From an uncultured Chloroflexia bacterium (GTDB taxonomy: Bacteria; Chloroflexota; Dormibacteria; Aeolococcales; Aeolococcaceae): a stretch of DNA of 64,000 nucleotides. Position numbers and translations under genes: made by a program. Below, one piece after another: positions 3,837-5,504 of the stretch. The stretch covers positions 692,157 through 756,156 of the forward strand of contig CAWJVN010000002.1 of assembly GCA_963846365.1 (NCBI GenBank), written 5' to 3'. Position 1 is the stretch's first letter, and each line of letters opens with the position of its first letter. The notes beneath the pieces are model-generated. The model saw only the letters and a program-made list of their open reading frames with translations. It was not told the DNA's origin and made no database searches.

Positions 3837-4109
3837 GTGTACCATGAGCCCGTGGAGCAGGGAAGCGCTCGCCTCAACATCACTCTGGACGCCGAGTACG
3901 CCGCCAAGCTCGCGCGGCTGGCCGAACGTGTCCACGTGCAGGAGGGAACCCTTGCTCGTGCTCTTCTCTCCAGTGCCTTGGATGAGGCCGATCCCGATCC
4001 CCGCTCGGTCACCGATGTGCTGGACGCGATCCCCGGCGCCTGGGAGCGCGCGCAGCTCGGCCGCCAGCAGGGTCAGTCGGGTCAGACGATCTCTCTCGAT
4101 GAGCTGTAG
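3837..4109 (+). CDS. Type II antitoxin, ribbon-helix-helix (ParD/CopG-like)
   Basis: 90 aa; RHH-like N-terminus (RLNITLDAEYAAKLARLAE); stop is 10 nt before the ParE-like toxin start; GTG start. Confidence 0.55.
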   Translation: MYHEPVEQGSARLNITLDAEYAAKLARLAERVHVQEGTLARALLSSALDEADPDPRSVTDVLDAIPGAWERAQLGRQQGQSGQTISLDEL

Positions 4110-4118
4110 AGGGTCGAG

Positions 4119-4409
4119 GTGGCGACGGTCGAGGTCGCACTCGCAGCGGTCGAGGATCTTGAACGACTTATCCGGGTTCTGAGCCTCCCGGGAAACACGC
4201 GCGAGCGCGTGCGCCGCGCACTCCGGCCGCTGGTGCGGTTCCCGCAGCTGGGCTCCGAGCTCCACGGCAGGTGGGCCGGTTTTCGCTTTCTGCTCGGTCC
4301 CTGGCGATGGATGCTGATGGTGTACGCATACGACGAGGATGAGGACCGCGTGATCGTCGTGACCATCCAGGATGCGCGAGCCGGTGACTCTCCAACCGCG
4401 GATCACTGA
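4119..4409 (+). CDS. Type II toxin, ParE/RelE family
   Basis: 96 aa; C-terminal RWAGFRFLLGPWRWMLMVYAYDEDEDRVIVVTIQDAR matches the ParE/RelE fold signature (R..vg.y.i.Yrv.e..v.I.ri.h.r); immediately follows the antitoxin. Confidence 0.65.
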   Translation: MATVEVALAAVEDLERLIRVLSLPGNTRERVRRALRPLVRFPQLGSELHGRWAGFRFLLGPWRWMLMVYAYDEDEDRVIVVTIQDARAGDSPTADH

Positions 4410-4541
4410 TGACCGACCTTCCGGGAGCCGTGAAGGGGATACGGACAACGCCCTGCGCCGCAGGACGGCGTGCTGGCCCTGGCCATGGCTCGTGGCGATC
4501 CACCACCATCGCTCACCCTACTGGCGACCCGCGGTGCGTTC

Positions 4542-5504
4542 ATGCCTGACGACTTTGTGATCGCCCGCAATCCCGACCCAGATTCGCGGCTGCCCTTCCT
4601 CCTCCGCATCCCCTTGGGGTCCGGAGTGCTCGTCAAGGCGCGTGAAACCTGGCCGCGAACCCGAGCCGTGTACTGCCACTCGGCCGAGCTTTGGCCGGAC
4701 GACCCGGAGATCATCGAGCGTACCCCGGTGCGCCTCTGCTCGCGCCGTGGGGCCGCCATCGACCTGATCCTGGATCGAGGCCGGGAGAACCGCTCCCAGT
4801 TCGTCTTCACGACTGCCCGAGGGCGGCAGGTGATCTTCTGGCAGACCGCTCGCGTCGCCAAGGCGGCACGGCCCGCTGTTCGCATTCCCACCTCCACTGG
4901 GCTCGCGGTCACGATCATCGTCGATGACCAGGAGAAGTATCCGTACCGCTTTATGGGCCAGCGGGTGAGCACCGAGCGTCGGCGCCTCCCAGCCGGCGAC
5001 TACGCAGTTGAGATGGGCGGTCAGGTGGTGGCCAGCGTCGAGCGCAAGACCCTGCAGGACCTTGTCAGCAGCCTCGTCTCCGGTCGTCTGGGCTACGCCA
5101 TGGCTCACTTGGCCGCTCTGCCCCGAGCTGCGATCGTTGTCGAAGACCGCTACTCGCGGCTGTTCAAGCATGAACATGTTCGCGGTGGGGTTGCTGCCGA
5201 CGCCCTGACCGAGGTACAGGTGCGCCGGCCCAGTGTTCCGATCGTCTTCTGCGAGACTCGACGCCTCGCCGAAGATTGGACGCATCGCTTCTTGATGGCC
5301 GCACTGAAGGAGATCGACGGAATTGACCTCCTCGGCGAACGGGAGAGGGCGCTCACACCGGCCTCGGAGCTCGAGCCCCCTCCACCGACCACGCGTGAGA
5401 TTCGGAAGTGGGCACAGGCTGCTGGGCTGACCGTCGCAGCTCGCGGAGGCTTACGGTCCGAGGTCATCGAAGCCTTCAACGCTGCGCACGACGCGACGGA
5501 GTAG
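4542..5504 (+). CDS. ERCC4 (XPF/Mus81-type) nuclease domain protein fused to a C-terminal Lsr2-like DNA-binding domain
   Basis: Central TIIVDDQEKYP...LPAGDYAV...ASVERKTLQDLVSSLVSGRLGYAMAHL...AAIVVEDRYS reproduces the ERCC4 motif set (D..E, GDY, ERK..DL, GR). The C-terminal TREIRKWAQAAGLTVAARGGLRSEVIEAFNAAH matches the Lsr2 C-terminal DNA-binding domain (IREWAR.NG..VS.RGRIP..VI.AY.AA). The N-terminal ~140 aa have no recognisable family. Confidence 0.65.
   Translation: MPDDFVIARNPDPDSRLPFLLRIPLGSGVLVKARETWPRTRAVYCHSAELWPDDPEIIERTPVRLCSRRGAAIDLILDRGRENRSQFVFTTARGRQVIFWQTARVAKAARPAVRIPTSTGLAVTIIVDDQEKYPYRFMGQRVSTERRRLPAGDYAVEMGGQVVASVERKTLQDLVSSLVSGRLGYAMAHLAALPRAAIVVEDRYSRLFKHEHVRGGVAADALTEVQVRRPSVPIVFCETRRLAEDWTHRFLMAALKEIDGIDLLGERERALTPASELEPPPPTTREIRKWAQAAGLTVAARGGLRSEVIEAFNAAHDATE

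Follow-up and report, generated by a model that had tools for sequence, protein, structure and literature searches.

The opening kilobases of a 64,000-nucleotide stretch of DNA from an uncultured Chloroflexia bacterium (contig CAWJVN010000002.1; hereafter the window) hold a gene predicted to encode a genuine, intact XPF/ERCC4-type nuclease with an Lsr2-type DNA-binding tail. The gene follows a toxin-antitoxin module (3837-4409), and we read the two as independent units that adjoin, the second being a stand-alone structure-specific endonuclease that would trim branched or non-ligatable ends in break repair, recombination or replicon maintenance. We give this reading as a whole about an even chance of being right; we are surer than this of the molecular activity, and less sure of the biological role. 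XPF/Mus81-family nucleases are textbook repair enzymes of archaea and eukaryotes. The family described here is a large bacterial one, with catalytic residues intact and two bacterial-specific accessory domains, and has been unstudied so far.

The open reading frames (ORFs) drawn by a first-pass annotation of this DNA were confirmed, and its assignment of an ERCC4 nuclease and an Lsr2 C-terminal domain to the 320-residue product was borne out by profile searches. ERCC4 (PF02732) matched residues 127-250 over the whole profile (E 1.4e-13, 51.4 bits) and Lsr2_DNA-bd (PF23359) matched residues 282-315 (E 9.1e-10), both over the Pfam cut-offs; NCBIfam gave only a partial match to Hef. When a profile of the nuclease family was compared with the PDB, it matched the nuclease domain of Pyrococcus Hef (1j22, 1e-8), XPF from human and Lsr2 C-domains (2kng, 1.7e-6). 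The catalytic motifs proposed earlier (D..E, GDY and ERK..DL) are present, and D128, E131, G152-D153-Y154, E167-R168-K169 and D173-L174 are invariant in an alignment of 42 family members and align with Hef. The protein has the superfamily signature GDXn(V/I)ERKX3D with its upstream acidic residues, as well as the ERCC4 nuclease fold. No helix-hairpin-helix (HhH) family, as would make up a C-terminal tandem (HhH)2 domain, was detected in it by Pfam at E <= 0.1, and residues 1-126 gave no Pfam match to the N-terminal dimerisation/oligomerisation domain of Lsr2, another fold, a beta-barrel, being found there. The tail of archaeal and eukaryotic XPF is an (HhH)2 domain that binds duplex DNA. Going by the domain matches, its place is taken in this family by the Lsr2-type DNA-binding domain and in some relatives by a winged helix.

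We place the start of the gene at ATG 4542, because the homologues begin with M/V-P-D-D-F and because the 78 bp upstream, common to the window and its two closest relatives (loci L001 and L002), carry frame-breaking indels. On the same grounds a longer ORF, from GTG 4470 or ATG 4485, was ruled out.

The AT-hook-like RGR motif of the Lsr2 domain is replaced in the window copy by R301-G302-G303. According to a motif census, [RK]GR is kept in 103 of 120 relatives and RGG or RGT is found in the window's clade, in which the AT-hook function may possibly be relaxed. The earlier proposal that the protein is targeted to AT-rich DNA is weakened here, as the clade is without the second arginine of RGR. 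A Logan contig of the same organism (L127), with neighbouring genes 100 % identical to those of the window, has a single-base deletion (window position 5255, L127 position 2430) which splits the nuclease into a 269-residue ERCC4 part and a 69-residue Lsr2 part. The deletion may be natural, making this copy a pseudogene variant, or may stem from the assembly.

An AlphaFold2 model made with the family alignment was confident, with a mean pLDDT (predicted local distance difference test) of 87.9. Residues 1-108 were modelled as all-beta and residues 109-119 as a disordered linker, followed by the nuclease domain, a long helix (240-270) and the small Lsr2-type domain; the N-terminal domain (N-domain), previously put at about 140 residues, is by this prediction about 108 residues long and followed by an 11-residue linker. 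In the model the N-domain adopts the eight-stranded beta-barrel fold of the LigD 3'-phosphoesterase (PE) superfamily. There was no Pfam match in it to the LigD_N sequence family with its HxxxxxHxDxR metal/phosphate site, and a profile search of the PDB with the N-domain alone was empty at E <= 10. In the sole register proposed by hhalign the His-x-Asp metal ligands of PE align to a Pro and a Leu, and the N-domain has one invariant His (H46). We therefore treat it, tentatively, as a PE-fold domain that would lack LigD-type metal chemistry, the His-His-Asp site not being recognisable.

No other part of the protein is as constrained as the N-domain, which has a mean column identity of 79 %, compared to 63 % for the nuclease domain, and 40 invariant columns, including ARNP, WPR, YCH, RENRSQ and FWQ. 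A HMMER scan of 1.84 billion representatives gave 873 matches, 579 of them at E <= 1e-10. Among the 150 matches listed many are fragments, and the full-length proteins, of about 320 residues, mostly carry the domain at the N-terminus or close to it; it occurs essentially only in the architecture described here. As a new domain family under strong constraint, it merits a name and a structure. Tail-swapped variants retain the N-domain and ERCC4: in P0248 a MarR/DeoR-type winged helix replaces the Lsr2 C-domain, and P0135, P0156 and P0269 have other tails. As these variants keep the core and exchange the tail, the N-domain and nuclease may be regarded as the core and the C-terminal domain as a replaceable DNA anchor. 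In a 335-residue protein, P0172, a UvrD-helicase N-terminal domain is joined to the N-domain, which is a real fusion or an artefact of gene calling or assembly. The flexible linker holds an invariant short motif in the family alignment, A109-R110-P111-x-V113-x-x-P116, which hints at an element contacting a partner or DNA; nothing in the linker was recognisable as a known clamp or SSB motif.

The homologue search gave more than 6000 significant clusters. The best 120 of these all contain the same two Pfam domains, at 56-86 % identity, and nearly all are about 320-385 residues long, one having 260. Those that have a name are labelled "ERCC4 domain-containing protein", "Lsr2 family protein" or "histone-like nucleoid-structuring protein Lsr2". 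The RefSeq Lsr2 names are misleading, the protein being a nuclease, and such labels inflate the counts of plasmid-borne xenogeneic silencers. According to a review, the function of plasmid-borne Lsr2 homologues is unpublished or acknowledged to be unknown (PMC7074111). Genomic loci of relatives come from Nocardioides, Ornithinimicrobium, Propionibacteriales, Acidimicrobiia and Nitriliruptorales, and the two closest (L001 and L002, 84-86 % identity) from metagenome-assembled genomes titled Chloroflexota. A metagenome scan added at least 600 stretches, and at least 587 of these encode a relative. An exact look-up of the nuclease protein gave no match; further DNA of the window's organism was reached through ParE only. 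A tblastn search of 72,556 plasmids found 23 records: Mycobacterium plasmids (pMUM002 of M. liflandii and those of M. ulcerans, M. pseudoshottsii, M. avium and, at 21 kb, M. intracellulare/chimaera), Rhodococcus megaplasmids, and plasmids of Pseudonocardia and Streptomyces. A phage origin was rejected, as no copy was found in IMG/VR or, by tblastn, in INPHARED, and BFVD had only ERCC4 proteins of a single domain, from archaeal or giant viruses. The matches were split, truncated or remnants in 6 of 34 genomic loci (L025, L028, L029, L030, L033 and L034), which fits a dispensable gene, even if some are perhaps assembly errors. The nuclease is an accessory gene of Actinomycetota chromosomes and plasmids, often beside mobile elements and sometimes decayed. 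The view that the fusion was undescribed held up, as a full-text literature search on ERCC4 together with Lsr2, actinobacteria or anti-phage activity returned nothing relevant. The three-domain architecture is thus common in the databases, uncharacterised and partly mis-annotated as Lsr2. The first-pass annotation had also proposed that it be sought elsewhere in Actinomycetota together with its surroundings: it was found there, in association with mobile DNA, as a common and not a rare architecture with no recurrent neighbour family over about 110 loci.

No partner of the nuclease gene is conserved. A caller based on GC3 (the G+C content of third codon positions), which was validated on deposited calls, was used to find the genes in about 110 loci. 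All-against-all clustering of the genes within four positions of the nuclease found no family in more than seven of these loci, and the nuclease showed no constant association with rep, par or recombinase genes. By tblastn, no neighbour of the nuclease in the window lay beside a homologue in any of the 34 genomic loci. The deposited annotations show ordinary metabolic surroundings, with PIN toxin-antitoxin modules in the closer relatives. Across the family the nuclease and its neighbours have the same GC3 (74 loci, mean difference -0.0005, Wilcoxon p = 0.98), and identity across classes is 55-60 %; the gene has therefore resided for long in most hosts. A -10-like hexamer lies 5-10 nt before the start codon, GTG or ATG, in 42 of 99 non-redundant loci compared to about 1 of 99 at control positions. 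The hexamer is mostly CACACT, CAGACT or CAAACT, often with TG before it, and this position suggests that the nuclease is transcribed as a leaderless message from its own promoter in those loci, which include L003, L004, L041, L053, L072, L073, L093 and L100. The hexamer is absent from the window, L001 and L002.

Hef, XPF and Mus81 are dimeric, metal-dependent, structure-specific endonucleases which cut at junctions of single- and double-stranded DNA. By analogy, the nuclease would act as a homodimer, anchored on duplex DNA by its C-terminal domains via the minor groove. The N-domain would bind a DNA 3' end or phosphate, probably without metal chemistry of the LigD type, and the ERCC4 site would cut 3' flaps, splayed arms or fork-like junctions. 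The likeliest role would be the trimming of branched or non-ligatable ends in double-strand-break repair, recombination, and chromosome or large-plasmid maintenance. End or flap trimming is favoured because two of the modules have relatives in end joining: the PE fold is that of LigD, and the Lsr2 C-domain is found as the C-terminal tail of Ku in cluster J mycobacteriophages (PMC8612146). This makes the family a concrete candidate for a nuclease that trims flaps or ends in actinobacterial double-strand-break repair, or else for a new single-gene nuclease against mobile genetic elements.

Several observations weigh against this proposal. Comparison of the N-domain with four solved PE sequences by hhalign gave a probability of 0.2 % and no sequence similarity to LigD PE; with the empty PDB search this led us to drop a sequence-level tie, so that homology is argued from the fold. 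The 99 upstream regions searched contained neither a LexA SOS box nor a RecA-NDp/PafBC promoter, so there is no sign of induction by DNA damage, and regulation of this kind was rejected. Dimerisation, substrate and N-domain function are all things that we infer, and the patchy, plasmid-rich and decay-prone distribution would suit a selfish or defensive gene equally well.

A defensive function is the alternative that survives best, and we consider it somewhat unlikely. In a high-GC host the Lsr2-type domain would then steer the ERCC4 nuclease to DNA that is AT-rich and thus foreign, where it would cut phage or plasmid intermediates of replication or recombination, with the N-domain as sensor or regulator. 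Lsr2 C-domains do bind AT-rich DNA (PMC8612146), and the retention of [RK]GR by most relatives fits with this, whereas the window copy has lost the motif and ERCC4 nucleases read structure rather than sequence. The patchy, horizontally mobile spread of the gene on plasmids, in a Tn7-like cargo position and beside insertion sequences (IS) and integrases, its occasional pseudogenised copies and the upstream regions free of damage-regulon motifs also suit defence; the native codon usage across the family, an identity of 55-60 % across classes, which is high for an arms-race gene, and the lack of a self-protection partner do not. PADLOC has no model for the protein, the sole match being between 39 residues of the Lsr2 tail and the MTase_II methyltransferase model. 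In some loci JetD (twice), DpdE/DpdF, PsyrT or SoFic lie within three genes of the nuclease, but these are the few strong PADLOC matches among 296 neighbours of about 70 loci, the others being generic, and we see no convincing defence-island signal in these loci, which were compared without a genome-wide background. Toxin-antitoxin genes are the commonest small neighbours: PIN is the top Pfam family among the small immediate neighbours (8 of 175), but it is also the top family three to four genes away (4 of 222). As the enrichment is not significant (odds ratio 2.6, p = 0.14), the PIN neighbours reflect genomes rich in toxin-antitoxin genes and not a link to the nuclease. The earlier description of the locus as a mobile or defence islet is thus upheld for its association with mobile DNA (the 23 plasmids, the IS, integrase and Tn7-like neighbours and the atypical codon usage of the window copy), but for defence there is no statistical support.

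A bolder form of this alternative, which we rate as unlikely, is a one-protein "xenogeneic cleaver", an innate-immunity nuclease of high-GC bacteria. In it an Lsr2-type reader of AT-rich DNA would bring the XPF-type nuclease to branched intermediates in the replication or recombination of invading phages and plasmids, with the PE-like N-domain as a licensing sensor, e.g. of free 3' ends. If true, this would be the destructive counterpart of Lsr2 silencing, spread by plasmids and transposons, even into Chloroflexota.

It is also conceivable, but in our view quite improbable, that the nuclease serves the maintenance of plasmids and other mobile elements, resolving or trimming, on large actinobacterial plasmids, the branched intermediates of replication or recombination (multimers, stalled forks, transposition products), with the chromosomal copies as integrated remnants. 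The plasmid copies speak for this, in particular those on 21-kb Mycobacterium plasmids, where the nuclease is one of just 19 annotated genes and a serine recombinase is nearby. On pMUM002 and the M. avium plasmid a tyrosine integrase and IS21 adjoin it, and HipBA, RelE/HigA and IS110 are found beside other plasmid copies. On pDK3 of Rhodococcus sp. DK176 (L124, 1674-7984) a homologue adjoins, in divergent orientation, a Tn7-like tnsA-tnsB-tnsC-tniQ module, a position typical for transposon cargo or for a neighbour of the attachment site. However, most copies are chromosomal, with native codon usage among ordinary metabolic genes, linkage to rep, par or recombinase genes is not conserved, and 23 records are few among the plasmids searched.

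The toxin-antitoxin pair upstream of the nuclease had been annotated as an RHH-ParE (ribbon-helix-helix antitoxin and ParE toxin) module. As a genuine two-gene module it stands, with the RHH fold of the antitoxin weakly indicated. ParE_toxin (PF05016) matched the second gene over profile positions 1-85 of 89 with E 3.8e-4 and 21.4 bits, 1.6 bits under the cut-off of 23, and RHH_1 matched the first below the cut-off. The toxin has 939 homologues, many of them named ParE or RelE/ParE and some with PF05016, and the antitoxin stop codon is 10 nt before the toxin start. The pair is co-inherited (antitoxin and toxin 92 % and 87 % identical in L129, and 67 % and 72 % in L130/L131), and in L129-L131 the gene downstream of it differs each time and is not an ERCC4 homologue; it is therefore predicted to be a genuine autonomous type II module. 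The GC3-based caller preferred a minus-strand ORF, 3639-4448, across the two genes; this was rejected, since the pair on the plus strand has homologues and gene calls agree with it.

The nuclease is on the same strand as the toxin gene, about 130 nt downstream of it as described earlier (132 nt from toxin stop to nuclease ATG). The proposal that the pair and the nuclease form one unit was not upheld, since they were not adjacent in the 34 loci, no recurrent neighbour was found in the approximately 110, PIN is not enriched and the pair occurs alone elsewhere. That the pair, the nuclease and the downstream GNAT gene make up one co-regulated mobile defence islet is very improbable and largely refuted by comparative context: the genes share a strand, short gaps (10, 132 and 8 nt) and a low GC3 (0.73-0.77 compared to 0.87-0.93 in flanking genes), and are arranged likewise in L127 and L128, two further samples of this organism, but in the closest relatives, at 77-86 % identity (L001, L002 and L038), the neighbours differ and DNA homology stops at the gene borders, the pair lacks the nuclease in L129-L131, no flanking repeats or integrase were found, and the group II intron nearby is a separate element, multicopy in the genome.

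In the window the nuclease has a GC3 of 0.77 compared to 0.85 +/- 0.03 for neighbours, and together with its immediate neighbours (about 2950-7000) forms a patch of 0.73-0.80, most of the window being at 0.81-0.95. DNA similarity to L001 and L002 (83-84 %) starts 63-78 bp upstream of the gene, at 4464 (L001) or 4479 (L002), and ends at 5505, one base past the stop codon. L001 and L002 are syntenic to one another and not to the window. The best named relatives of a thiamine pyrophosphate-dependent enzyme in the window are from Candidatus Dormibacteraeota/Dormibacteria (77-79 %), in agreement with the Chloroflexota titles of L001 and L002. The nuclease thus probably reached a Dormibacteria-like (Chloroflexota) host horizontally. 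The atypical GC3, the homology ending at the gene borders, the lack of synteny and of a leaderless promoter, and the RGG/RGT motif suggest a fairly recent arrival from Actinomycetota. Further patches with a GC3 of 0.73-0.80 lie at about 45400-48700, 54100-54730 and 58260-58735, and all these patches are candidates for recently acquired segments. No flanking repeats, att sites or integrase were found around the first patch, and a promoter/terminator scan of the window was uninformative.

Features of the window discussed in the text, in order along the toxin-antitoxin and nuclease genes, followed by other elements
Feature	Coordinates	Strand	Basis
Antitoxin gene, 90 aa, of the predicted autonomous type II toxin-antitoxin module; RHH fold weakly indicated	3837..4109	+	RHH_1 E 0.012
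ParE/RelE-family toxin gene, 96 aa	4119..4409	+	ParE_toxin PF05016
Upstream non-coding stretch, moves together with the nuclease gene	4464..4541	+	DNA similarity to L001/L002, frame-breaking indels
Nuclease gene, 320 aa, three predicted domains (PE-like barrel, ERCC4 nuclease, Lsr2-type DNA-binding)	4542..5504	+	Pfam, alignment, model
N-domain, residues 1-108, predicted all-beta barrel specific to the nuclease family, LigD 3'-phosphoesterase-like fold	4542..4865	+	
Linker, predicted disordered, residues 109-119	4866..4898	+	pLDDT < 50
ERCC4 (XPF/Mus81/Hef-type) nuclease domain, catalytic motif intact	4908..5291	+	
Catalytic codons GDY; ERK; D173	4995-5003; 5040-5048; 5058-5060	+	
Lsr2-type C-terminal DNA-binding domain; RGG (5442-5450) where the RGR minor-groove motif is expected	5385..5498	+	PF23359, 2kng
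GNAT acetyltransferase ORF, 8 nt downstream of the nuclease	5512..6057	+	Acetyltransf_1 E 1.8e-6, over Pfam cut-off
Group II intron, two copies	347-2280; 28977-30904	- (both)	Rfam RF02005, 190 and 177 bits

The GNAT ORF gave no tblastn match beside homologues in the 34 loci and is probably just a neighbour. Opposite to it, an 89-residue ORF (5590-5859, minus strand) is favoured by the GC3-based caller and by the deposited gene call of L127, so the annotation here is ambiguous. The nearby group II intron noticed in the first reading of the DNA is real; its two copies are 97.4 % identical over 1936 nt, and in both the reverse-transcriptase frame seems to be broken up into a number of overlapping ORFs, to a greater extent in the first. 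A 153-residue ORF in the low-GC3 patch (2979-3440, plus strand) has no Pfam match and may encode a lipoprotein, having an N-terminal hydrophobic stretch that ends in a lipobox-like VASGGC.

Compared to known systems, the toxin-antitoxin module resembles ParDE-type modules, with a small upstream antitoxin and a ParE/RelE-fold toxin conserved as a unit, and has nothing unusual in it and no functional tie to the nuclease. The nuclease itself differs from the archaeal Hef nuclease domain, the short crenarchaeal XPF (1j22, 2bgw) and eukaryotic XPF/Mus81 in being bacterial, in lacking the (HhH)2 and helicase domains, in showing no evidence of a PCNA/clamp motif, and in having an Lsr2-type C-terminal binder and an extra N-terminal PE-like barrel. 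With the Lsr2 silencer of Actinomycetota (2kng, 6qkp) it shares the DNA-binding domain at the C-terminus, in which most family members keep the RGR motif, but the window copy has RGG, the N-terminal oligomerisation domain of Lsr2 is absent and the protein is a nuclease. The N-domain resembles in its modelled fold the PE domain of bacterial and archaeal ligases of non-homologous end joining (3n9b, 3p4h), but lacks sequence similarity to it and a recognisable His-His-Asp Mn site, has a single invariant His, and is fused to a nuclease instead of ligase or polymerase domains. The Ku-Lsr2 C-domain fusion of the cluster J mycobacteriophages Omega and Corndog likewise combines a DNA-end or repair protein with a C-terminal Lsr2 tail (PMC8612146); its core is Ku and it is phage-borne, whereas the core here is ERCC4 and the family was not found in the phage collections. 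The proteins described here are nucleases of the XPF family whose N-domain forms a domain family of its own, which is new, and whose DNA anchor is unusual.

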